DNA of 64,000 nucleotides from the NCBI RefSeq assembly GCF_002854065.1, contig NZ_CP024147.1; one strand, given 5' to 3'. Below, piece after piece: positions 1 through 12,221 of this stretch. The first letter of the stretch is position 1. Each line of letters starts with the position of its first letter. The notes under the pieces were generated by a model. It was not told the origin of the DNA. It saw only the letters and a list, made by a program, of their open reading frames with translations, and ran no database searches. Both the position numbers and the translations under genes were made by a program. The stretch is from Escherichia coli. Its GTDB lineage: Bacteria > Pseudomonadota > Gammaproteobacteria > Enterobacterales > Enterobacteriaceae.

Positions 1-232
1 TGAGGCCAACGCCCATAATGCGGGCAGTTGCCCGGCATCCAACGCCATTCATGGCCATATCAATGATTTTCTGGTGCGTACCGGGTTGAGAAGCGGTGTA
101 AGTGAACTGCAGTTGCCATGTTTTACGGCAGTGAGAGCAGAGATAGCGCTGATGTCCGGCGGTGCTTTTGCCGTTACGCACCACCCCGTCAGTAGCTGAA
201 CAGGAGGGACAGCTGATAGAAACAGAAGCCAC
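1..232 (-). CDS. insA: IS1 InsA, 5' portion (3' end beyond window edge)
   Basis: Position-mapped from the complete copies (insA starts at IS1 position 56). Confidence 0.7.
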
Positions 233-287
233 TGGAGCACCTCAAAAACACCATCATACACTAAATCAGTAAGTTGGCAGCATCACC
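1..287 (-). mobile_element. IS1, partial copy in inverted orientation (IRL end at 287; remainder outside window)
   Basis: Reverse complement of the first 287 bp of the complete IS1 copies at 3932 and 9506; terminal ...GCATCACC at 281-287; sequence variant matches the 9506 copy. Confidence 0.85.
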
Positions 288-327
288 CGTCAGATGAAAG
301 AATTAATCGGTAACGAAGGAGATATTC

Positions 328-498
328 ATGTCACTTGCAACCACAGTGAAGGAGAGCAAGTTACAGAGACGCATGTACACGCAGAAAGCTCTCTGGTATC
401 GCCATAATGGCGACCGCGAAGGAATGCGGGTATGCCTTAATTTGTCCCGAGTCGAAGTATTAAATCAGCGTTATTTCCTTGGGCCGTGTCCATTCTGA
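328..498 (+). CDS. Hypothetical small protein (56 aa), prophage
   Basis: ATG at 328 preceded by AAGGAGA RBS; ends TGA 496-498; below the 60-aa cutoff of the ORF track; no recognisable motif. Confidence 0.3.
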   Translation: MSLATTVKESKLQRRMYTQKALWYRHNGDREGMRVCLNLSRVEVLNQRYFLGPCPF

Positions 499-506
499 GG
501 TGAATT

Positions 507-1214
507 ATGGATTTGAATAAATTCGATGAGCCATTCAGCCCTGAAGATATCGAATGGCGAATACAGCAAAGCGGTAAAACACGCGATGGCAAGGTGTGGG
601 CTATGGTGCTGGCTTATGTAACGAACCGGGCAATCATGAAACGCCTGAACGATGTTTGCGGCAAAGCAGGATGGCGCAATGAATACCGCGATATTCCCAA
701 CAACGGCGGAGTTGAATGCGGCATATCAATCAGGATTGATTCCGAATGGGTAACCAAATGGGATGCTGCTGAAAACACGCAGGTAGAAGCCGTCAAAGGT
801 GGTCGTTCCGGCGCAATGAAGCGCGCTGCCGTTCAATGGGGAATCGGTCGGTATCTGTATAACCTTGAGGAAGGTTTCGCACAAACATCTCTCGATAAAA
901 AGCAGGGGTGGCACAGGGCAAAACTGAAGGATGGAACAGGATTTTACTGGCTCCCTCCATCGCTGCCGGGATGGGCAATACCAGCATCAGATAACAAACC
1001 ATCACCAGAAAATACCAACCAGAAATCTCCATCGGTTGACTGCGAACAAATCCTGAAAGACTTCAGCGATTATGCATCAACAGAAACTGACAAGAAAAAA
1101 CTCATCGAGCGTTATCAGCGTGACTGGCAATTAATGGCTGGCAACGAGGAGGCGCAGGCTAAATGCGTTCAGGTAATGAGCATCAGAGTTAACGAACTAA
1201 AACAGGCGGCATAA
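507..1214 (+). CDS. Phage single-strand annealing protein, Rad52/Sak-like
   Basis: 235 aa with KRAAVQWGIGRYLY-type motif recalled from Rad52/Sak annealases; immediately followed by ssb. Confidence 0.55.
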   Translation: MDLNKFDEPFSPEDIEWRIQQSGKTRDGKVWAMVLAYVTNRAIMKRLNDVCGKAGWRNEYRDIPNNGGVECGISIRIDSEWVTKWDAAENTQVEAVKGGRSGAMKRAAVQWGIGRYLYNLEEGFAQTSLDKKQGWHRAKLKDGTGFYWLPPSLPGWAIPASDNKPSPENTNQKSPSVDCEQILKDFSDYASTETDKKKLIERYQRDWQLMAGNEEAQAKCVQVMSIRVNELKQAA

Positions 1215-1721
1215 ATGGCAAGCAGAGGCGTAAATAAGGTGATTATCCTTGGTCGGGTAGGACAAGACCCGGAAGTTCGATACTCACCATCAGGAACAGC
1301 GTTCGCTAACCTGACAATAGCCACGTCAGAACAATGGCGAGATAAAAATACTGGCGAGCAAAAGGAATTGACTGAATGGCATCGTGTTGCTGTATCCGGG
1401 AAACTGGCTGAGGTCGTGGGGCAGTATGTGAAAAAAGGTGATCAGATTTATTTCGAGGGAATGCTGAGAACCAGAAAGTGGAAAGACCAGTCAGGGCAAG
1501 ACCGTTACACAACCGAGGTTCATGTCGGAATTAATGGCGTGATGCAAATGCTTGGCGGCATTGGCGACAGCAAACAACAAGCAGCCAGCAGGCAATCACA
1601 GAAGCCACAGCAGCAATCATCACCAGCACAACACAACGAACCTCCGATGGATTTTGACGACGATATACCCTTTGCACCAGTAACTCTCCCCTTCCCTCGT
1701 CACGCTATTCACGCAATTTAA
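1215..1721 (+). CDS. ssb: Single-stranded DNA-binding protein, prophage-encoded, with 15-aa extension past the DDDIPF tail
   Basis: [23 protein letters not shown]... OB-fold N-terminus near-identical to enterobacterial SSB; acidic DFDDDIPF motif present but followed by [15 protein letters not shown]. Confidence 0.9.
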
Positions 1722-1734
1722 TCAGGAGAAAATC

Positions 1735-2031
1735 ATGCCAGCGCCTCTGTATGGTGCGGATGACGCGCGCCGCTGTTCCGGCAATTCCGTATCGGAGGTG
1801 CTGGATAAATTCAGGAAAAACTACAACCGGATAATGTCGCTACCGCAGGAAACGAAAGAGGAAAAGGAATTTCGCCACTGTATATGGCTTGCAGAGAAAG
1901 AAGAACGCGAGCGAATTTACCAGACATCAATCCGACCATTCCGCAAAGCCACATATACCCACTTCCCTGAATATATCGACCCGCGCCTGCGTAATTACCG
2001 CTCACGCTATGGCGCTATCAGTAATGACTGA
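1735..2031 (+). CDS. Hypothetical phage protein (98 aa)
   Basis: ORF following ssb with AGGAGA RBS; no recognisable motif. Confidence 0.45.
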
Positions 2032-2041
2032 GGAATTTACC

Positions 2042-2206
2042 ATGAGAGGACTTGCATACAATCCCGGAATTCTTCCGGCAGAAATGATTATTCGCCAACG
2101 CGTAAAGCCAATGCCATCGAGAGAGGAATTGCTTAAGAGAAAGAGTTTCGGTTCTGTTAATGACAACAAATATCTGAATGCGATGTGGCTGAGTGGGAAG
2201 AAATGA
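2042..2206 (+). CDS. Hypothetical small phage protein (54 aa)
   Basis: ATG at 2042 with GAGGA RBS; stop overlaps next start as ATGA (2203-2206). Confidence 0.3.
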
Positions 2207-2685
2207 AACAAATGACACTAATTGAGATGGATGGATTTCTGAAAGGTAAATGCATCCCATGTGATTTAAAGGTTAACGAAACAAACGCTGAATATCTTGT
2301 GCGTAAGTTCGGTGAACTTGAATCAAAACTAGAAACGGCGTTGCGGGAGTGTAGTTCTGCTGGAATCACGATTGATAACCTTGAGGCCAAGTGCGCGAAG
2401 ATGGCTGCTGAAAATACCTCGCTTAAGCAATCTGAGAAGGAATTTAATGACTTTTGTCGTGAGGAGTTTAGCGAATGGGAAGATGATGTTACTGAAACCC
2501 CAGCCACCGATGCTTTCCTGGCTGAAGTACGGGCGCAGGGGGTAGAGATGTACGCAGATAACCTCGACAACGGAGCAGACGACGCAGAACGAGGTGGTTT
2601 TGATTATGCCGCTAAGTTTCTACGCGGTGAGGCGTCTAGTGTACGCTTGTTCGCCGACCAGCTTCGCAAAGGAGGCAACCAGTGA
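2203..2685 (+). CDS. Hypothetical phage protein, possibly Ead/Ea22-like
   Basis: ATGA start/stop overlap with upstream ORF; acidic protein in a run of coupled small phage genes. Confidence 0.45.
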
Positions 2686-3161
2686 GCAAGATTAACTATC
2701 AGGCACTGCGTGAGGCGGCGGAACGTGCAATTCCAGCAATGGAACGCCTGTTAATGTTGCCAGTTGATGATGATTTGTTAAGTGAACAGGAACTTAAAGA
2801 TTACGGTGTGGATATTGATGCGCTCAACGCCTTCAAATTTCTGACCGGACCAGAAACCGTGCTGGCGCTGCTGGATGAGCTGGAAAGAAAACAGCAATAC
2901 ATCAAATCCCGAGACCAGGAGAACGAGGATATTGCGCTAACGGTAGGGAAGCTGCGCGTTGAGCTGGAAGCCGCAGAGAAGCGCATTGCTGAGCTGGAGT
3001 TGCGGGAGGTTGTGCTTCCGCAATGCTATAGCATGTTGCATCGCGTCGATTTTGACGAGCCTTACCACACTGAAATGGTTTACAGGCAGCATCAGGTTCT
3101 TGAGGCACTGCACAACGCTGGAATAAACGTCACCGAAGCAGGTAAAGGAGAGGCATCATGA
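2682..3161 (+). CDS. Ead/Ea22-like phage protein
   Basis: GTG start with AAAGGAGG RBS overlapping previous stop; N-terminal ...YQALREAAERA... resembles Ea22-like proteins as recalled. Confidence 0.45.
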   Translation: MSKINYQALREAAERAIPAMERLLMLPVDDDLLSEQELKDYGVDIDALNAFKFLTGPETVLALLDELERKQQYIKSRDQENEDIALTVGKLRVELEAAEKRIAELELREVVLPQCYSMLHRVDFDEPYHTEMVYRQHQVLEALHNAGINVTEAGKGEAS

Positions 3162-3670
3162 GCACTATCACAAGAGAATGGCTGCAGCAGGCTATCAACG
3201 ATTATGAAAGCGTTCGTGATGAGCTTCCTTTCGGGCTTGATGATTACCAGGGGAATATCCTGGCTGCCCTGCGTATCGCACTGGCATCGCTGGAAGCAGA
3301 GCCGGTGGCGTGGAAGGTAACATTCACGCAAATTGACCGTGAATATAACACGTTCACTGGTATGTATTCTGACAAAGCAGAAGTCGAACGGTGGGTGCGG
3401 CTGCATAAAGCATGTAATTTTCGGGCAGATATAACACCGCTTTATACCGCCAAGCCAGTGCCGGTAACTCCGGATGGTTGGATAAGCTGTAGTGAGCGAA
3501 TGCCAGAGGACGGTCAGCACGTAATTATTTTATGTGATGGCGCATTCGTTCTTTATGCGCAATATCGAGACGGAGAGTTTTTCGATATTGTCCGCAATGG
3601 TGATGAATTTTTCGAAACACAGAGTCGCAATGTAACCGACTGGATGCAACTACCAGAACCTCCCCTTTGA
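3158..3670 (+). CDS. DUF551-domain phage protein
   Basis: C-terminal W-x-SCSERMPEDG ... TDWMQLPEPP motif typical of DUF551. Confidence 0.55.
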   Translation: MSTITREWLQQAINDYESVRDELPFGLDDYQGNILAALRIALASLEAEPVAWKVTFTQIDREYNTFTGMYSDKAEVERWVRLHKACNFRADITPLYTAKPVPVTPDGWISCSERMPEDGQHVIILCDGAFVLYAQYRDGEFFDIVRNGDEFFETQSRNVTDWMQLPEPPL

Positions 3671-3766
3671 TAGCTAAGCTTATACATATCTTTTACATCA
3701 GCAATCTATTGTTAATCTCCAATCAATGTTACGTTGTCATCTCTCTCATGCTTTGGAGGTAGTGAT

Positions 3767-3958
3767 ATGTCTTGTCCAAAATGCGGTTCTGGAAATATTG
3801 CAAAAGAAAAAACAATGCGTGGATGGTCTGATGATTATGTGTGCTGCGATTGCGGATACAACGACTCTAAAGACGCATTTGGAGAGCGTGGTAAAAACGA
3901 GTTTGTCAAAATTAATAAAGAACGCGAAGGCGGTGATGCTGCCAACTTACTGATTTAG
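3767..3958 (+). CDS. Small zinc-ribbon protein (CxxC...CxxC); native last 4 codons displaced by IS1
   Basis: GGAGG RBS, MSCPKCGSGN...CCDCG; reading frame runs into IS1 at 3932; native C-terminus ...EREG-NEKS* reconstructable across the insertion. Confidence 0.5.
   Translation: MSCPKCGSGNIAKEKTMRGWSDDYVCCDCGYNDSKDAFGERGKNEFVKINKEREGGDAANLLI
3923..3931. repeat. 9-bp target site duplication (CGCGAAGGC), left copy
   Basis: Identical 9-mer directly abuts both ends of the IS1 at 3932-4699. Confidence 0.9.
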
Positions 3959-3986
3959 TGTATGATGGTGTTTTTGAGGTGCTCCA

Positions 3987-4262
3987 GTGGCTTCTGTTTC
4001 TATCAGCTGTCCCTCCTGTTCAGCTACTGACGGGGTGGTGCGTAACGGCAAAAGCACTGCCGGACATCAGCGCTATCTCTGCTCTCACTGCCGTAAAACA
4101 TGGCAACTGCAGTTCACTTACACCGCTTCTCAACCCGGTACGCACCAGAAAATCATTGATATGGCCATGAATGGCGTTGGATGCCGGGCAACCGCCCGCA
4201 TTATGGGCGTTGGCCTCAACACGATTTTCCGCCATTTAAAAAACTCAGGCCGCAGTCGGTAA
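3987..4262 (+). CDS. insA: IS1 InsA
   Basis: 91 aa [18 protein letters not shown]... Confidence 0.9.
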
Positions 4263-4684
4263 CCTCGCGCATACAGCCGGGCAGTGACGTCATCGTCTGC
4301 GCGGAAATGGACGAACAGTGGGGATACGTCGGGGCTAAATCGCGCCAGCGCTGGCTGTTTTACGCGTATGACAGGCTCCGGAAGACGGTTGTTGCGCACG
4401 TATTCGGTGAACGCACTATGGCGACGCTGGGGCGTCTTATGAGCCTGCTGTCACCCTTTGACGTGGTGATATGGATGACGGATGGCTGGCCGCTGTATGA
4501 ATCCCGCCTGAAGGGAAAGCTGCACGTAATCAGCAAGCGATATACGCAGCGAATTGAGCGGCATAACCTGAATCTGAGGCAGCACTTGGCACGGCTGGGA
4601 CGGAAGTCGCTGTCGTTCTCAAAATCGGTGGAGCTGCATGACAAAGTCATCGGGCATTATCTGAACATAAAACACTATCAATAA
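4181..4684 (+). CDS. insB: IS1 InsB frame (made as InsAB' by -1 frameshift)
   Basis: 167-aa ORF overlapping insA in -1 frame; A6C slippery motif intact. Confidence 0.85.
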
Positions 4685-4699
4685 GTTGGAGTCATTACC

Positions 4700-4708
4700 C
4701 GCGAAGGC
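4700..4708. repeat. 9-bp target site duplication (CGCGAAGGC), right copy
   Basis: Matches 3923-3931. Confidence 0.9.
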
Positions 4709-4786
4709 AACGAAAAAAGCTAATTTATTTATTCATATATGAAAACAATGTAATAAATATTCGAATTGAAGAATTGAAAGAACACC

Positions 4787-4810
4787 AAGCCGCCTGATGG
4801 CGGTTTTTTA
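4787..4810 (+). terminator. Rho-independent terminator-like hairpin
   Basis: GCCGCC-TGAT-GGCGGT stem-loop followed by TTTTTT. Confidence 0.5.
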
Positions 4811-4823
4811 TTGGAGACAAGAA

Positions 4824-5168
4824 ATGTCAGATTTGGCTATGAAGGTTTTGAAATGGCAATCGACTGGCGATGTCGGCATCAGTAGCGCAACTCTTGCCTC
4901 AATCGCATGTGGCCTGAAAAAGAATATCTATGGTCATCACTTCGGCGCTCCCCATGACGCAGCAGACTTTCGGCGATGCGTTGCACTTGTTGAGCAGATT
5001 CCAGAAATCAGAGATTCATTCGACAAGGTTGCAAAGCGCGTTCCGGCATTCAAAGGAATCCTCAACGAATGGGATTCACTCGTTGCTCTGTTGAAGTCTG
5101 AAATGAAGACGTACGGGAACAAAGCACCAGAGACTTACAGAAGAATCAGCGAGCTACGCAAGGACTAA
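4824..5168 (+). CDS. Hypothetical protein (114 aa), prophage cargo
   Basis: ATG at 4824 with GGAGA RBS directly after the terminator; no recognisable motif. Confidence 0.45.
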   Translation: MSDLAMKVLKWQSTGDVGISSATLASIACGLKKNIYGHHFGAPHDAADFRRCVALVEQIPEIRDSFDKVAKRVPAFKGILNEWDSLVALLKSEMKTYGNKAPETYRRISELRKD

Positions 5169-5245
5169 CGCCTCACACTCGATGAGGCCTGTACATATCT
5201 GATAGATCCGCTATATGGCGGTTTATTTTTGCCTGGAGAATTAAG

Positions 5246-5437
5246 ATGACCGATACCAGCCTGATTCCTGAGAAAGAAGTGATGAACAAGCTCGGTGTTT
5301 CATCACGTCAGACAATCTGGAACTATACCAAACGGCACGGATTTCCGAAGCCAGTCAGAACCCACCCCAAATCATACCTTCGTGAAGCTGTTGAAGGGTG
5401 GATTCTTAACGGTGGCGTTAATCAGAAATGCTCCTGA
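5246..5437 (+). CDS. alpA: AlpA-family phage transcriptional regulator / excisionase-like
   Basis: 63-aa HTH protein resembling AlpA (MTDTSLIPEKEVMNKLGVSSRQTIWNYTKRHGFPKP...); adjacent to integrase. Confidence 0.7.
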   Translation: MTDTSLIPEKEVMNKLGVSSRQTIWNYTKRHGFPKPVRTHPKSYLREAVEGWILNGGVNQKCS

Positions 5438-6596
5438 TGTGCCAGAACAATTTATCAGCGTGAAGCTCATACGCTTTGCGCTGAGCCTCTATCCAGTCGT
5501 GTTTATTGTATACGGACATTATCCCGCCAAGTTCATGACCGAGCATTCGCTCAGTAACATGAGGCTCGACATTCATCTCGGACAGACGTGTAACAAGCGT
5601 TCTTCTGAAATCGTGTGTTCGCCAGTAACCTAGATCCATCCCTCCCCTTATTCTATTTACGAATCGGTTGGCTGCAGCGATGCTGATCGGTTTGTTTATG
5701 TCTTCTCCAGGGAAAAGAACATCATTGTACGTTGTCATGGCCTTTTCGAGGAAAGGCTTAATTTGTTCGAAGATTGGACGGCGGATAACATTACCCATCT
5801 TGCTATGCTCTTTCGGTACGGTCCATACGTTTTCCAGCAGGTCAAATTCTGTCTTTTTTGCCAGCCTAAGCTCTGAGAGCCTCGCCCCCCACAGCATAAG
5901 CATCTGATGAAGTAGCTTATTTGACGTAGACGCACGGCTTCTTTCAATAGCAAGCCAAATCTTAGCCAGTTCGTGATACGACAGTACCCGATCCCCTACC
6001 TCAGCGCGGGAGCCGAAGTCCCTTGGTTGGATGCTCATAATTGCGCAACTATCTATCAACTGACGCCGCATGCACCAACTTATTGCTGATCTTAGTTGAC
6101 TTAGCACCTGCCTTGCTCGGCGTGGATTATCTCTTTCTTCTTCGGTAAGCAGGTCAACCCATTGCTTAACCGTGATAGAAGATGCCGGACGATTAGGAAA
6201 GGCGTCATGCATGCGCTTCATAACCGTTGATCGGTAAAGTGCCTGGGTCTTTTCTCTGAGAGTTGTAGAGACGTAGTTGTCGAACCAGTAGTCGAGACAC
6301 TGGGCGACCGTCATGGAGTTCTCCACCTTCTCTTCAAAATAAGTGCGTGGATCCGTTCCTGAGAAATAGAGCTTTCGCAAGTCAGCAGTGATCTGTCTGG
6401 CATCCTTCAAAGACAGGGATGGGTATCGACCAAGCCCAAGTCGATTAGGCTTGCCATGCCAGCGATAGCGGTACTGGAACTGGATGACCCCCTTCGGTGA
6501 AATTCGTACGCTGAGGCCATCGGCATCAGCCACTTCTTGTGGGCCCGAATATGGTTTACCATAAATACTACGCAGTTTTGTGTCGCTTATAGCCAT
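5418..6596 (-). CDS. int: Tyrosine-type site-specific integrase (P4/CP4-57-like)
   Basis: 392 aa; C-terminal catalytic region with R...HDFRRT...LGH...Y motifs. Confidence 0.9.
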   Translation of the reverse strand: MAISDTKLRSIYGKPYSGPQEVADADGLSVRISPKGVIQFQYRYRWHGKPNRLGLGRYPSLSLKDARQITADLRKLYFSGTDPRTYFEEKVENSMTVAQCLDYWFDNYVSTTLREKTQALYRSTVMKRMHDAFPNRPASSITVKQWVDLLTEEERDNPRRARQVLSQLRSAISWCMRRQLIDSCAIMSIQPRDFGSRAEVGDRVLSYHELAKIWLAIERSRASTSNKLLHQMLMLWGARLSELRLAKKTEFDLLENVWTVPKEHSKMGNVIRRPIFEQIKPFLEKAMTTYNDVLFPGEDINKPISIAAANRFVNRIRGGMDLGYWRTHDFRRTLVTRLSEMNVEPHVTERMLGHELGGIMSVYNKHDWIEAQRKAYELHADKLFWHIRSISD

Positions 6597-6777
6597 AAAT
6601 AATATTTGGTACGCTCAGAAATAATGGTTTGGTACACATCTGGTACACAATATCACATGGACAACAGCGCACAGTAAACAACTATATTTGACGTTCGTAG
6701 ACATACTCAGGTGAAAAAATGGTTGTTTTTCGAGTTATAACAGACAGTTAATTAACTACAGTGGACAATGCTAGACA

Positions 6778-8202
6778 ATGACAGACGCAGATAAACAACC
6801 TACCTTCCTCTTTCACGATTACGAAACCTTTGGCACGCACCCCGCGTTAGATCGCCCTGCACAGTTCGCAGCCATTCGCACCGATAGCGAATTCAATGTC
6901 ATCGGAGAACCCGAAGTCTTTTACTGCAAGCCCGCTGATGACTATTTACCCCAGCCAGGAGCAGTATTAATTACCGGTATTACCCCGCAGGAAGCACGGG
7001 CGAAAGGAGAAAACGAAGCCGCGTTTGCCGCCCGTATTCACTTGCTTTTTACCGTACCGAAGACCTGTATTCTGGGCTACAACAATGTGCGTTTCGACGA
7101 CGAAGTCACACGCAACATTTTTTATCGTAATTTCTACGATCCTTACGCCTGGAGCTGGCAAAACCGCAATTCGCGCTGGGATCTGCTTGACGTGATGCGC
7201 GCCTGCTATGCCCTGCGCCCGGACGGCATCAACTGGCCGGAAAACGACGACGGTCTGCCGAGCTTCCGCCTGGAACATCTCACCAAGGCCAACGGTATTG
7301 AACACAGTAACGCCCATGATGCGATGGCCGACGTTTACGCGACCATCGCCATGGCGAAGCTGGTGAAGGCCCAACAGCCAAAGCTGTTTGATTATCTGTA
7401 TGCCTACCGGGGCAAAAACAAGCTGATGACGCTGATTGACGTCCCGCAGATGAAGCCACTGGTGCATGTCTCGGGAATGTTTGGCGCCTGGCGCGGAAAC
7501 ACCAGCTGGATTGCGCCGCTGGCCTGGCATCCGGATAACCGTAATGCGGTGATCATGGTCGACCTGGCGGGCGACATCGCCCCGCTGCTCGAGCTGGATG
7601 CCGATACGCTGCGCGAGCGCCTGTATACGCCGAAGGCCGAGCTCGGCGACAGTTCGCCGGTGCCGATTAAGCTGGTGCATCTGAATAAGTGCCCGGTGCT
7701 GGCGCAGGCCAATACCCTGCGCCCAGAAGACGCTGACCGTTTAGGCATTAACCGACAGCACTGCCTGGATAACCTGAAACTGCTGCGCGATAACCCGCAG
7801 GTGCGCGAGAAGGTGGTGGCGATTTTTGCTGAAGCCGAGCCGTTTGTCGCATCGGACAACGTCGACGCCCAGCTTTATAACGGTTTCTTTAGCGACGCCG
7901 ACCGCGCGGCGATGAAAATCGTGCTGGAGACCGAGCCGCGCAATCTGCCGGCGCTGGACATTACCTTCGCCGACCCGCGTATTGAGAAGCTGCTGTTTAA
8001 CTTCCGCGCGCGCAACTTCCCCGGCACGCTGGATGAAAACGAGCAACAGCGCTGGCTGGAACACCGTCGGCAGATCTTCACCCCGGAATTTTTACAGGCC
8101 TACGCCCAGCAACTGGAGATGTTGTACGGTCAGTATGAGGGGAATAACGAGAAGCTATCGCTGCTGAAGGCGCTGTATCAGTACGTGCAGGAGATTGTTT
8201 AA
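6778..8202 (+). CDS. sbcB: Exodeoxyribonuclease I
   Basis: 474 aa, near-colinear with E. coli SbcB (FLFHDYETFGTHPALDRPAQFAAIRTD...). Confidence 0.95.
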   Translation: MTDADKQPTFLFHDYETFGTHPALDRPAQFAAIRTDSEFNVIGEPEVFYCKPADDYLPQPGAVLITGITPQEARAKGENEAAFAARIHLLFTVPKTCILGYNNVRFDDEVTRNIFYRNFYDPYAWSWQNRNSRWDLLDVMRACYALRPDGINWPENDDGLPSFRLEHLTKANGIEHSNAHDAMADVYATIAMAKLVKAQQPKLFDYLYAYRGKNKLMTLIDVPQMKPLVHVSGMFGAWRGNTSWIAPLAWHPDNRNAVIMVDLAGDIAPLLELDADTLRERLYTPKAELGDSSPVPIKLVHLNKCPVLAQANTLRPEDADRLGINRQHCLDNLKLLRDNPQVREKVVAIFAEAEPFVASDNVDAQLYNGFFSDADRAAMKIVLETEPRNLPALDITFADPRIEKLLFNFRARNFPGTLDENEQQRWLEHRRQIFTPEFLQAYAQQLEMLYGQYEGNNEKLSLLKALYQYVQEIV

Positions 8203-8211
8203 TTCAACGCA

Positions 8212-8240
8212 GCGACGCCGGAAAATCTTCCCGGCGTCGC
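8212..8240. terminator. GC-rich hairpin between convergent sbcB and yeeD (putative bidirectional terminator)
   Basis: GCGACGCCGG-AAAATCTTC-CCGGCGTCGC perfect 10-bp stem; weak flanking U-tracts. Confidence 0.4.
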
Positions 8241-8255
8241 TTGATGCCTGGGGCA

Positions 8256-8480
8256 TTATTTCTGTACGGTGATGGTCCACGCCGCATCGCCAGACTGCTG
8301 ATAGTCCGTGACCGTAAAGCCCTCTTCCGCCGCCCACTGCGGGATGGCTTCCGTCGCCTGAGTACAGTCGAACTCAATCACCAGCTGGTCGCCGCTGGCC
8401 AGTTCCGCCATCGCCGCCTTCGCTTCAATTAACGGGAACGGGCAAACCTGCGTGACTACGTCCAGTTTCTTCACAACCAT
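8256..8480 (-). CDS. yeeD: TusA-like sulfur carrier protein YeeD
   Basis: 74 aa with CPFP motif; conserved position downstream of yeeE. Confidence 0.85.
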   Translation of the reverse strand: MVVKKLDVVTQVCPFPLIEAKAAMAELASGDQLVIEFDCTQATEAIPQWAAEEGFTVTDYQQSGDAAWTITVQK

Positions 8481-8525
8481 TTTTTCTACTCCTTAAGCCG
8501 TTGCGGTTTTCAGTTTTGCTTTCCG

Positions 8526-9505
8526 CTACGGGCGAACATACAACATCCACGACGCGCACCACACGCCGAGAATCATAAATACCAGGCCAATCCAGCCCTG
8601 CCAGGTCATCATCGCCGTCATCACCAAACCGTTGCCGATCGAGCAGCCGCCGGCAATGCTGGCACCGAAGCCCATCAGTACGCCGCCACCCGCGCTACGC
8701 AGCGTGGTGCTGGCATCGGCAGCGCGGACGCGGAATTCACGGCTGGCTTTCGCGGCAATAAACGAACCGATAAAGATTCCCAGCACCAGGAAGACGCCCC
8801 AGTTGAGGTACTTGCTGTCACCCCCCACCAGGAACTGCAGGATATTGGCGGTCGGCGAGGTAATGCCAAGGCCAAACATACGTCCGGTGGCCTCACTCAG
8901 CGGCCAGGCCAGCAGGGCGATAAGGCCAATCAGCACGGCGGTCACAAACGGATGCCAACGCTTTTCAAACAGCAGATGCGCCAGGCCAGTGCGGCGCGGC
9001 GGCAGAGAAGCTACTTTGAGCTTTGGTTTGCTCAGCTCTTTGCGAACAAACCACAGGGTCACCGCCACCAGCAGAACGATAAGTGGCCAGACGGAGATAT
9101 TCAGGGTTTCGGCAATGCCGTTGTGAGTGGTCGTGTGTTGACCGAGGAATTTGTTAAGCCCAGCCGCGTGCGGTGAACGCATGATCGCGCTCATCACCAT
9201 ATAGGTGACCAGTGCAATCCAGCTGCCAATCAGCCCTTCCCCGGCACGATACCAGGTGCCGGTGGCGCAGCCTCCCGCATAAACGATACCGATACCAAAA
9301 ACAAATCCACCCACCACGGTGCCAAGCCACGGGAACGCGCCTGCATCGTACTGCACCAGGCCAAGCTGGATCAGGGCGAACACGCCGATACTCTGGATAC
9401 AGATAGCAATCAACAGTGCGTAAAACATGCGGTTATTTTTGGTGATATACATATCGCGAAAGCCACCCGTCAGGCAGAAACGACCGCGCTGCATAACGAA
9501 TCCCA
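8526..9505 (-). pseudogene. yeeE: yeeE (tsuA) thiosulfate transporter, 3' portion from codon ~18 onward, separated from its 5' end by IS1
   Basis: Homology to YeeE begins at ...GFVMQRGRFCLTGGFRDMY; codons upstream of 9505 run directly into the IS1 end at 9506. Confidence 0.85.
9497..9505. repeat. 9-bp target site duplication (CGAATCCCA), left copy
   Basis: Identical 9-mer at 10274-10282 abutting the other IS1 end. Confidence 0.9.
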
Positions 9506-9560
9506 GGTGATGCTGCCAACTTACTGATTTAGTGTATGATGGTGTTTTTGAGGTGCTCCA

Positions 9561-9836
9561 GTGGCTTCTGTTTCTATCAGCTGTCCCTCCTGTTCAGCTA
9601 CTGACGGGGTGGTGCGTAACGGCAAAAGCACCGCCGGACATCAGCGCTATCTCTGCTCTCACTGCCGTAAAACATGGCAACTGCAGTTCACTTACACCGC
9701 TTCTCAACCCGGTACGCACCAGAAAATCATTGATATGGCCATGAATGGCGTTGGATGCCGGGCAACTGCCCGCATTATGGGCGTTGGCCTCAACACGATT
9801 TTACGTCACTTAAAAAACTCAGGCCGCAGTCGGTAA
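9561..9836 (+). CDS. insA: IS1 InsA
   Basis: 91 aa. Confidence 0.9.
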
Positions 9837-10258
9837 CCTCGCGCATACAGCCGGGCAGTGACGTCATCGTCTGCGCGGAAATGGACGAACAGTGGGGCTA
9901 TGTCGGGGCTAAATCGCGCCAGCGCTGGCTGTTTTACGCGTATGACAGTCTCCGGAAGACGGTTGTTGCGCACGTATTCGGTGAACGCACTATGGCGACG
10001 CTGGGGCGTCTTATGAGCCTGCTGTCACCCTTTGACGTGGTGATATGGATGACGGATGGCTGGCCGCTGTATGAATCCCGCCTGAAGGGAAAGCTGCACG
10101 TAATCAGCAAGCGATATACGCAGCGAATTGAGCGGCATAACCTGAATCTGAGGCAGCACCTGGCACGGCTGGGACGGAAGTCGCTGTCGTTCTCAAAATC
10201 GGTGGAGCTGCATGACAAAGTCATCGGGCATTATCTGAACATAAAACACTATCAATAA
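9755..10258 (+). CDS. insB: IS1 InsB frame
   Basis: 167 aa; A6C motif intact. Confidence 0.85.
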
Positions 10259-10273
10259 GTTGGAGTCATTACC

Positions 10274-10325
10274 CGAATCCCAGTAAAGCCCCGCAAATCA
10301 TGCCACTTATTATCATGTGCAACAT
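10274..10325 (-). pseudogene. yeeE: yeeE 5' fragment (first 17 codons, MLHMIISGMICGALLGF) including the right-hand TSD copy
   Basis: Reverse-strand translation matches the YeeE N-terminus; rejoining across the IS1 (minus one TSD copy) restores ...ALLGFVMQRGRF. Confidence 0.8.
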
Positions 10326-10460
10326 AAGAATCAATTAACTCAATATTATCAGTCTTAAAATTATTCCTGACCCCGCCGGACGGCTCCAATAACCAAAAGC
10401 TCTATATTATTCCCGACGGTTATTAATATTGATTTTTTAATCACCCCACAAACTTAAGAC

Positions 10461-10492
10461 AAAAAAAACCGGAGGCCCAGACCTCCGGTTTT
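10461..10492. terminator. Bidirectional rho-independent terminator downstream of plaP
   Basis: AAAAAAAA-CCGGAGGCCCAGACCTCCGG-TTTT. Confidence 0.6.
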
Positions 10493-10515
10493 GCAACCAT
10501 CGTTTTTAAATTCAG

Positions 10516-11874
10516 TTATGCAACATCTTCGTACTGCGGAACCGGGTTGCGGAAGCTTTTGGTCACACAGGCCAGGTAGATCAGACCGATACCGGCCCAG
10601 ATCAGGCCCAGAACCATAGAGCTCTCTTCCAGGTTCACCCACAGTGCGCCAACGGTCAGCGCGCCGCAGATTGGCAGGAACAGGTACTGGAAGTGATCTT
10701 TCAGCGTCTTATTACGCTTCTCACGGATCCAGAACTGAGAGATAACGGACAGGTTCACGAAGGTGAACGCCACCAGCGCACCGAAGTTAATCAGCGCCGT
10801 TGCCATCACCAGGTCGAAGTTAATCGCCAGCAGCGCAATCGCGCCAACCAGGATGATGTTCATCGCCGGGGTGCGCCAGGTTGGATGCACGTAGCCGAAG
10901 AAGCTTTTCGGGAACACGCCATCACGGCCCATCACGTACATCAGACGCGCCACACCCGCATGCGCCGCCATACCGGAAGCCAGCACGGTAATGGTGGAGA
11001 AGATCAGCGCGCCAACCTGGAAGGCTTTACCCGCCACGTACAGCATGATTTCAGGCTGTGAGGCGTCCGGATCTTTGAAGCGAGAGATATCCGGGAAGTA
11101 GAGCTGCAGGAAATAGGTGGAGAAGATAAAGATCAGGCCACCAATCAGCGCCGTCAGGAAGATAGCACGCGGAATCACACGCTCAGCGTCTTTGGTTTCT
11201 TCAGACAGGTTGCTGATACCGTCAAAACCGGTAAAGGAGAAGCACAGAATCGTGGCCCCGGTAATCATAGGGATCACGTGCGCATCACCCGACCAGAACG
11301 GACGGTTGCTTGCCAGCGTACCGGCACCTTCGCCGTGCGCCACGCCATAAATCACCATACCTAGGATCACGGCAATCAGTACCACCTGGAACACCACGAT
11401 CACGGTGTTAAAGTTGGCGACAGATTTGATGCTGCGCAGGTTAAAGGCGGTCATAAAGGCAACCAGTGCAATCACGAATACCCATGACGGTATCGACGGC
11501 ACCAGCGCTTCGAAATAGATTTTTGCCAGCAGAATGTTGATCATCGGCGCGAACAGATAATCGAGCAGCGAAGACCAACCCACCATAAAGCCAACGGTCG
11601 GGCTGATGGATTTCTGGGCATAAGTGTAGGCAGAGCCCGCCGAAGGATAACGGCGCACCAGCTTACCGTAGCTCAGCGCGGTGAACAGAATTGCCACCAG
11701 AGCGAAGGCATAAGCTGTTGGCACGTGACCATCGGTCATGCCAGATACGATACCGAACGTATCAAACAGCGTCATCGGCTGCATATAGGCCAGGCCCATC
11801 ATAACAACCGGAATAAGCGTAAGCGTTTTACGTAATTCCACGCGAGAGGTGTTTGGAGTAACGTTATGCGACAC
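10516..11874 (-). CDS. plaP: Putrescine importer PlaP (YeeF), APC-family permease
   Basis: 452 aa, near-colinear with E. coli PlaP ([20 protein letters not shown]...). Confidence 0.9.
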
Positions 11875-12221
11875 GGTCAGTCTCCATTACGGCGATGGCC
11901 GGCGCAAAATTGAAAAATTGCCCCATTTTTTTTCTGTTTCCTCAGCGACAACGACTGTCGTTTTTTAAGTAAGTATCTATCCGGTACGAAGCCCGGCCTC
12001 TTTAATTTGATGGTTGTTTTGATGTAAAAAAAATAACCGACGCGGCAAGCACGTCGGTTAATCTCAATTTTTTACATTCGACATATTTTGCCCCAAACGG
12101 TAGCAAAAAGACAAGCCGCTGAGAGCATAATCAGCACGCCTTCTCGTCTAAACGACTGATAATTCAGCAACTCCCGAATCATAAATCTCATCAATAGCAC
12201 TATTTGCTAAAACAGCGGCGA

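Follow-up and report, generated by a model that had tools for sequence, protein, structure and literature searches.

Three probably separate IS1 insertions in and beside a prophage at the sbcB attachment site of an Escherichia coli genome

Three copies of the insertion sequence IS1 lie in and beside a prophage at sbcB in the Escherichia coli genome analyzed here, and with high probability they represent three separate simple insertions, the likeliest order of which is C, B, A. We favor independent simple insertions because both complete copies are flanked by 9-bp target duplications of their own and because relatives carry C only or C plus B. The window, to which all coordinates refer, is the whole 64,000-nucleotide stretch of contig NZ_CP024147.1 that was analyzed. 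The affected region is a 10-kb stretch that comprises the int-proximal arm of a lambdoid prophage, which is seated within sbcB at its 5' end, together with the neighboring tsuA gene.

Copies A (3932-4699) and B (9506-10273) are complete 768-bp elements on the plus strand. Copy C lies on the minus strand at positions 1-287; it corresponds, in reverse complement, to the first 287 nt of IS1 and includes the left inverted repeat (265-287), insA, and the beginning of the insB' frame. A blastn search of IS1 against the whole window returned only these three copies, and the IS1 left inverted repeat occurs three times in the window against zero expected occurrences. Both A and B show the length (~768 bp) and the imperfect ~23-bp inverted repeats of IS1: the left repeat is GGTGATGCTGCCAACTTACTGAT, the reverse complement of the right repeat is GGTAATGACTCCAACTTATTGAT, and the two mismatch at 5 of 23 positions. 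Each complete copy also contains a 91-aa insA (3987-4262 in A, 9561-9836 in B), an A6C motif at IS1 position 307 (4238-4244 and 9812-9818, respectively), and a fused InsAB' frame open for 232 aa, an arrangement predicted to yield the InsAB' transposase by -1 frameshifting. The NCBIfam model NF033558 ('IS1 family transposase') scored approximately 242 bits (242.7 for A) against a cutoff of 100. With inverted repeats, insA, frameshift site, and open InsAB' frame all in place, both elements look intact as far as their sequences can tell.

The first-pass annotation of this DNA had reported three IS1 copies of at least two sequence variants and had named pairwise alignment as one check. The alignment bore it out: A and B are not identical and fall into two types, with differences at 9 of 768 positions (IS1 positions 127, 262, 298, 301, 304, 393, 396, 444, and 655). 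The InsB-frame N-termini quoted in that annotation are identical to those in the program-made list of open reading frames. Over its 287 nt, C matches B (9506-9792) at 100% and differs from A at 2 positions, in agreement with the earlier assignment of C to the variant at 9506; the accompanying description of C as a partial copy is a window artifact, because the window start truncates the element.

We compared the three copies to those of K-12. Copy B is type I (IS1A-like), lying 1 nt from K-12 IS1A and 9 nt from IS1B/IS1C. Copy A is type II (IS1B/IS1C-like), lying 2 nt from the identical IS1B and IS1C and 9 nt from IS1A. Of the 9 differences that set type II apart from type I, copy A has 8, InsA L81F included; at position 704 it has the type I base, and it carries a private synonymous T at position 655. 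Copy C, also IS1A-like, has type I bases at both informative positions within its 287 nt, and B and C share a private T at position 262 (A in K-12 IS1A). Neither A nor B is a mosaic of the two types. By RefSeq annotation, A is 99.9% identical to copies labeled 'IS1-like element IS1B family transposase', and B is 100% identical to many copies, chromosomal and plasmid-borne, labeled 'IS1-like element IS1A family transposase'. Both sequence types are already known from E. coli K-12, for which two IS1 types separated by 9 mismatches have been reported (PMC12428005), a count that agrees with our comparison.

The prophage early-left segment between C and A (288-3931, plus strand) encodes, by PHROG assignment, an erf-like annealing protein (507-1214), ssb (1215-1721), the anti-RecBCD protein abc2 (1735-2031), and Ead/Ea22-like and DUF551 ORFs. 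It ends in a small Zn-ribbon ORF (3767-3931) that has lost its last 4 codons to the insertion of A; exact-protein look-up of this small ORF as fused into A returned no record. The segment is colinear with the SY3626 prophage and with two assemblies, L008 and L011, described below, and it consists of mosaic pieces 96-98% identical to Sf101, HK544, and Stx2c phages. Comparison with the SY3626 prophage places the insertion point of C between kil and the erf-like gene. The prophage is crippled by IS1, with its early-left operon split at C and the small ORF clipped at A. In the sibling strain 100416, independent IS1-associated prophage erosion is seen at this locus.

Copies A and B have the same orientation and a start-to-start spacing of 5574, and both repeat search and direct comparison placed 4806 bp (4700-9505) between them, which matches the direct repeats around ~4.8 kb described in the first pass. 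The contents that it had listed for this segment (a 114-aa ORF, alpA, the integrase, sbcB, yeeD, and most of yeeE) could all be located by coordinates. Its reading of the 114-aa ORF as a cargo gene did not hold: this frame (114/123 aa, 4797-5168) belongs to PHROG 1229 and is an ordinary lambdoid early-region ORF, with no evident cargo character. The AlpA-family HTH protein (5246-5437, +) falls in PHROG 66, 'excisionase and transcriptional regulator', has AlpA-family counterparts in the annotation of HK544 and HK140, and is likely the prophage excisionase (Xis). Next to it is a 392-aa tyrosine integrase of the sbcB-integrating type (5418-6596, -; PHROG 1, E=1.4e-74). DNA of the int region matches Sf101, HK544, HK140, and Stx2c phages, and the same int gene adjoins sbcB in 502 E. 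coli genomes.

Phages 2851 and Sf101 share a 13-bp attP core, CGTAATCGTGAAA (PMC4159516). Its reverse complement, TTTCACGATTACG, has a single exact match in the window at 6811-6823 (+), inside the 5' end of sbcB, and represents the attL core. Rightward from about 6811 the sequence is perfectly identical to that of the prophage-free strain EC24 (BLAST alignment from 6794), and leftward it is divergent. The core together with the adjacent cognate integrase identifies integration of the phage 2851/Sf101 type at sbcB, with attR lying outside the window. A 23-mer scan of contigs with the divergent block that starts inside sbcB matched only distant sbcB homologs at 65-77% identity (Pantoea and two MAGs). 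The gene itself, coding for exonuclease I, remains an intact ORF of 474 aa (6778-8202, +) whose N-terminal codons come from the prophage (MTDADKQP... versus MMNDGKQQS...). We rejected a tRNA gene as the attachment site; the window contains no tRNA genes, and the site lies inside sbcB.

Beyond sbcB are yeeD/tsuB (8256-8480, -) and yeeE/tsuA, which B splits after codon 17 of 351. The 3' part of tsuA (codons 15-351) occupies 8493-9505 (-), with codons 15-17 forming the duplicated target site, and the first 17 codons lie with the right target duplication of B at 10274-10325 (-; ATG at 10325-10323). The gene also carries a CAG to TAG change at 8526-8528, 11 codons ahead of the normal stop. Judged from the sequence, this thiosulfate transporter gene is predicted to be inactivated by B at codon 17. 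tsuA is uninterrupted in five complete genomes.

The flanks of the complete copies show the 9-bp target duplications of IS1. Copy A sits between perfect repeats of CGCGAAGGC (left 3923-3931, right 4700-4708) and B between perfect repeats of CGAATCCCA (left 9497-9505, right 10274-10282), and in relatives each 9-mer occurs once at the corresponding empty site. A single CGCGAAGGC is present in L008 (Logan SRR23696841) and L011 (a contig of GCA_035821435.1), and a single CGAATCCCA lies in the uninterrupted tsuA of L001, L002, L003, and L008. L008 is 100%/99.97% identical to the window across the A and B sites, with one copy of each 9-mer. Each IS1 insertion would have generated its own 9-bp duplication. 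This evidence for simple insertion covers A and B; C continues outside the window, where its other end and second duplication would be found, and the 9-mer CGTCAGATG is a candidate for its target duplication.

It is extremely unlikely that A, B, and the enclosed DNA arrived as one unit in the manner of a Tn9-like composite transposon, even though direct IS1 repeats around a few kb are the architecture of Tn9 and are also found in K-12, where IS1B and IS1C enclose the argF segment. The outer flanks differ, with CGCGAAGGC to the left of A and CGAATCCCA to the right of B, so that no outer duplication is shared and each IS1 has its own. The enclosed order int-sbcB-tsuB-tsuA is that of the native chromosome and is free of IS1 in L001, L002, and L008, relatives carry B without A or neither copy, and A and B belong to different IS1 types. 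Arrival as a composite unit was rejected, being refuted by the duplications and the empty sites.

Relatives that carry fewer copies suggest an order of arrival for the three simple insertions. Near-identical public assemblies have C only, or C and B without A. At the C site, the L008 contig stops 27 nt into IS1. The L011 contig begins and ends in IS1, with 75 nt of the element at the B site and 72 nt at the C site, and its A site is free of IS1. The most parsimonious order would be C, then B, then A, as read from short-read assemblies with contigs ending in IS1. In the metagenome contig L012, the B insertion occurs alongside another prophage variant, and the history may therefore include prophage recombination. 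L008, L011, and L012 came from an exact look-up of the 322-aa YeeE' ORF, which returned mostly intact tsuA genes with an internal ATG taken as the start. Among 5,426 complete E. coli genomes, megablast of 1-12000 found no carrier of IS1 at the A, B, or C site; the best of these matches cover all of 1-12000 except the IS1 copies.

Repeats such as IS1, present in many copies, are often placed wrongly by assemblers, and A is seen in this assembly alone. An assembly artifact at one or more of the copies is nevertheless barely credible: A and B have distinct SNP sets and exact 9-bp duplications, independent assemblies break or end in IS1 exactly at the C and B junctions, and A is flanked by a perfect duplication of a 9-mer that relatives have only once at this site, which is the hallmark of true transposition.

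B may have arisen from C by a short-range hop, since their comparable parts agree fully, down to the private T at position 262. Local hopping of IS1 has precedent (PMC5009759). The position of A as the newest copy sits oddly with its type, since type II IS1 is reported to be almost immobile in K-12 (PMC12428005), unless A was mobilized in trans or type II copies of natural strains do transpose. A newest copy of type II (InsA L81F) hints that such copies are mobile, or mobilized in trans, in natural strains.

With three copies inside 10 kb, IS1 offers good substrate for recombination. Earlier recombination between IS1 copies, by deletion, inversion, or gene conversion, might itself have produced the present arrangement, and the sibling strain 100416 does have IS1 at a deletion-like junction inside int. 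We consider such an origin very unlikely here. Prior recombination would put different 9-mers on the two sides of a copy, but those of A match, as do those of B; all segments are colinear with IS1-free relatives and in native orientation, and neither A nor B is mosaic for type.

Recombination among the three inserted copies can be predicted from their layout. A RecA-dependent crossover of A with B would delete 5,574 bp comprising one IS1, xis, int, sbcB, tsuB, and most of tsuA, leaving one hybrid IS1 between CGCGAAGGC and CGAATCCCA. Crossovers of C with A and of C with B would invert 3.6 kb and 9.2 kb, respectively. No recombinant of either kind, deletion or inversion, was seen. The longest uninterrupted blocks of identity between A and B are 210, 134, 126, and 113 bp. 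Experimental precedent comes from K-12, where the direct IS1 pair of the cryptic prophage CP4-6 gave an 11.5-kb deletion that recurred in 12 mutation-accumulation lines (PMC5009759). Deletion of int-sbcB-tsuB through A and B is thus a mechanistically sound prediction, and it has not occurred in this sequence, as is evident from the target duplications of A and B, which are intact and do not match each other. A chimeric junction query (500 bp left of A, IS1, and 500 bp right of B) matched no record at 80% coverage or more among the 5,426 complete E. coli genomes, a negative that is weak evidence because no genome of that set carries both A and B. The earlier interpretation of the bracketing pair was right, yet it describes routine IS biology. 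We regard it as improbable that the pair is a nascent Tn9-like composite that could move int and sbcB-tsuB onto plasmids or yield subpopulations lacking ExoI; if it were, those subpopulations would show altered recombination and mutation phenotypes.

The significance of these findings beyond annotating this strain is slight. The locus offers a small, clean case of IS1 building up step by step: near-identical genomes carry one, two, or three copies. Through these insertions the prophage seated at the sbcB attachment site is decaying and tsuA is knocked out, and the A-B pair prepares a predictable deletion of 5.6 kb, by which exonuclease I would be lost and the remaining prophage locked in. A wider bearing comes from the latest arrival being a type II IS1, the type that recent K-12 work describes as nearly inactive.

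We compared the locus to known systems. Stx2c phage 2851, Sf101, HK544, and HK140 use the same 13-bp core in the 5' end of sbcB, and int-xis and early-left genes of Sf101, HK544, HK140, and Stx2c phages are 96-98% identical to ours in mosaic pieces. Our prophage is a mosaic distinct from these: no single phage record covers more than 48% of 288-6823. Neither stx nor oac is present in its visible part, the rest lying outside the window. In Shigella flexneri, IS elements lie upstream of sbcB in 10 of 10 genomes and an Sf101-like int is found in 8 of 10 (PMC4159516); these remnants reflect the same kind of IS-driven prophage decay. Copy B resembles the type I K-12 copies IS1A and IS1E in its 768-bp length, inverted repeats, insA, A6C site, and InsAB' frame. 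Relative to K-12 IS1A, the insertion sites of B (tsuA codon 17) and C (the kil-erf interval of the prophage) are new. The IS1B/IS1C pair in CP4-6 of K-12 is also two direct copies bracketing several kb in or beside a decaying prophage. That pair flanks the argF segment, whereas A and B bracket chromosomal sbcB-tsuB and prophage int, and unlike the identical IS1B and IS1C, A and B differ in type (98.8% identical, 4.8 kb apart). Tn9 consists of cat flanked by direct IS1 repeats. The likeness of the A-B pair to it is architectural only (two direct copies around a few kb); A and B differ from Tn9 in having no shared outer target duplication and in enclosing DNA that occupies its native chromosomal place.

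Repeat and inverted-repeat searches and blastn of IS1 over the whole window identified exactly three IS1 stretches. Copies A (3932-4699) and B (9506-10273) are both 768 bp long and lie on the + strand, forming the direct repeats described in the first-pass annotation. Copy C (1-287) lies in the opposite orientation and begins at the window's first base; its earlier description as partial reflects this edge and not necessarily the element itself. A and B each have imperfect 23-bp terminal inverted repeats, a 91-aa insA, an A6C frameshift motif at IS1 position 307 and an open InsAB' frame of 232 aa. The fused products of both copies reach 242 bits with the NCBIfam model for IS1 transposases (cutoff 100).

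The copies are not all alike. Direct comparison of A with B gave nine mismatches (IS1 positions 127, 262, 298, 301, 304, 393, 396, 444 and 655), and the InsB-frame peptides quoted in the first-pass annotation are present as written in the ORF list. C matches B exactly over B's first 287 nt and is unlike A at two informative positions, bearing out its assignment to the same variant as B. When K-12 reference copies were fetched and compared, B was 1 nt from IS1A, and A was 2 nt from IS1B (identical to IS1C) and 9 nt from IS1A. A T at position 262 is private to B and C. Two types of IS1, type I (IS1A-like) and type II (IS1B/IS1C-like), are already described in K-12 and differ by nine mismatches (PMC12428005). 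By K-12 typing, the two lineages claimed earlier correspond to these types. Exact matches to B and copies 1 nt from A, annotated as IS1A-family and IS1B-family transposases respectively, are found across thousands of chromosomes and plasmids of E. coli. The two match lists often name the same genomes, and carrying both types is the normal state for one genome.

Perfect 9-bp direct repeats flank both A (CGCGAAGGC) and B (CGAATCCCA); the outer flanks of the pair are different from one another. Because each copy has its own repeat and the outer flanks are unmatched, A and B have the hallmark of two simple insertions that occurred independently. The same features exclude arrival of the pair as a composite unit, and the matched repeat around each copy excludes a past A/B crossover. 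Across both target sites, a Logan contig from SRR23696841 matches the window at 100%; each 9-mer is single there and IS1 is absent. This contig ends 27 nt into IS1 at the C junction. A contig from GCA_035821435.1 has IS1 sequence at both ends, 75 nt at the B junction and 72 nt at the C junction, and its A site is empty. tsuA (yeeE), which B interrupts, is intact at this site in five complete genomes (CUWW06, SY3626, EC24, MEI4BO-21 and 100416). The simplest order of insertion is C, then B, then A. IS1 favours nearby targets (PMC5009759) and B shares its private T with C, so B is plausibly a local hop from C. Compared with IS1-free relatives, all window segments keep the native order and orientation, and no inversion has occurred.

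Over ~8.4 kb of non-IS1 DNA, the sole SNP separating the window from the SRR23696841 and GCA_035821435.1 contigs is at position 648, in an erf-like gene; the two assemblies stand very close to the source strain. A metagenome contig (ENA ERZ27255804 k141_36526, 1-4430) contains B's IS1 junction in tsuA within an identical host backbone. Its prophage left arm differs from that of the window, and all eight SNPs that distinguish it from the window fall within xis-int (5225-6573). The arrangement points to replacement or recombination of the prophage once B was in place, or else to a chimeric assembly.

Reading from A to B, the 4,806-bp interval carries a small phage ORF, then an AlpA/Xis-like HTH gene, a gene for a tyrosine integrase, sbcB (6778-8202, +), yeeD/tsuB and yeeE/tsuA from codon 18. 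The first-pass annotation is real and accurate except for the "partial" copy, the "cargo" label and the exact yeeE break point. The integrase is part of a mosaic lambdoid prophage and not a stand-alone island gene. The prophage early-left arm fills 288-6596 (erf-like recombinase, ssb, abc2, Ead/Ea22-like and DUF551 ORFs, xis and int) and matches Sf101, HK544, HK140 and Stx2c-converting phages piecewise at 96-98% identity. No tRNA gene was found in the window. A 13-bp attachment core in the 5' region of sbcB (6811-6823) is the one found in the attP of phages 2851 and Sf101. From the core rightward, identity to prophage-free sibling strains is perfect (BLAST alignment begins at 6794), and leftward the sequence diverges. 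dacD directly adjoins sbcB in those siblings, and the new first codons of SbcB in the window come from the phage.

Each insertion disrupted a gene or operon. C broke the early-left operon between kil and erf, A cut four codons from the end of a small Zn-ribbon ORF, and B split tsuA after codon 17. tsuA also carries a CAG-to-TAG change (8526-8528, - strand) 11 codons ahead of the normal stop; CUWW06 has CAG. The 322-aa product running from an internal ATG to this stop occurs in eight public contigs, so the TAG allele is older than the B insertion and common to several strains. In sibling strain 100416, a type II IS1 (5243-6011 of its locus) truncates the same integrase at the equivalent of window position 5768, and most of the prophage is gone; this IS1 adjoins an acyltransferase gene and a prophage remnant. 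Sf101-like remnants riddled with IS also lie upstream of sbcB in S. flexneri (PMC4159516). Together, these cases make IS-driven prophage decay at the sbcB attachment site a recurring, known pattern.

Type II IS1 (InsA L81F) is reported to transpose at extremely low frequency in K-12 (PMC12428005). The newest insertion in the window, A, is a type II copy (IS1B-like, InsA L81F), and in strain 100416 another type II IS1 occupies the deletion junction. This leaves two readings: type II copies are active in natural strains, or type I transposase mobilises them in trans. Their high copy number across E. coli genomes already implies mobility in nature, so the type of the newest copy is a footnote and not a discovery.

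The window's more unusual feature is separate from the IS1 finding. Left of a breakpoint inside sbcB (~7110-7170), the sequence (5' sbcB, with dacD in relatives) is 97-100% K-12-like; from there to the window end (64000), >55 kb is only ~62-93% identical to K-12. This block (~7110-64000) holds the 3' two-thirds of sbcB, tsuBA, plaP, a yeeZ-like gene, the his operon, gnd, and the O-antigen and colanic acid clusters; the plaP-hisL interval lacks yeeY and yefM-yoeB. Four RefSeq E. coli chromosomes (CUWW06, EC24, MEI4BO-21 and 100416) match the block at 99.9-100% identity. A 23-mer scan of species-representative genomes for a donor returned distant homologues only. The block looks to be a large piece of chromosome that was imported or is very divergent.

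As direct repeats that are 98.8% identical and share identical stretches as long as 210 bp, A and B should offer ample identity for RecA-dependent exchange. A crossover between them would delete 5,574 bp, comprising one IS1 copy together with the small ORF, xis, int, sbcB, tsuB and the greater part of tsuA, and would leave a single hybrid IS1 with unmatched flanks. C faces the opposite way to A and B, so its exchange with A would invert 3.6 kb and with B 9.2 kb. None of these three products is seen in the window sequence. Mutants of xonA/sbcB establish that this gene is dispensable. With tsuA already broken and the prophage already crippled as well, the A/B deletion should be nearly neutral. 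The interpretation in the first-pass annotation, including loss of sbcB and the integrase by this route, is sound as a prediction. A chimeric query for the deletion junction had no carriers in 5,426 complete E. coli genomes, a weak negative since all of these genomes lack A and B. The closest precedent comes from K-12, where the IS1B/IS1C pair that brackets argF in CP4-6 gave rise recurrently to an 11.5-kb deletion in mutation-accumulation lines (PMC5009759). The case is a textbook one: IS1A-type and IS1B-type elements acting in known ways at a known prophage attachment site.
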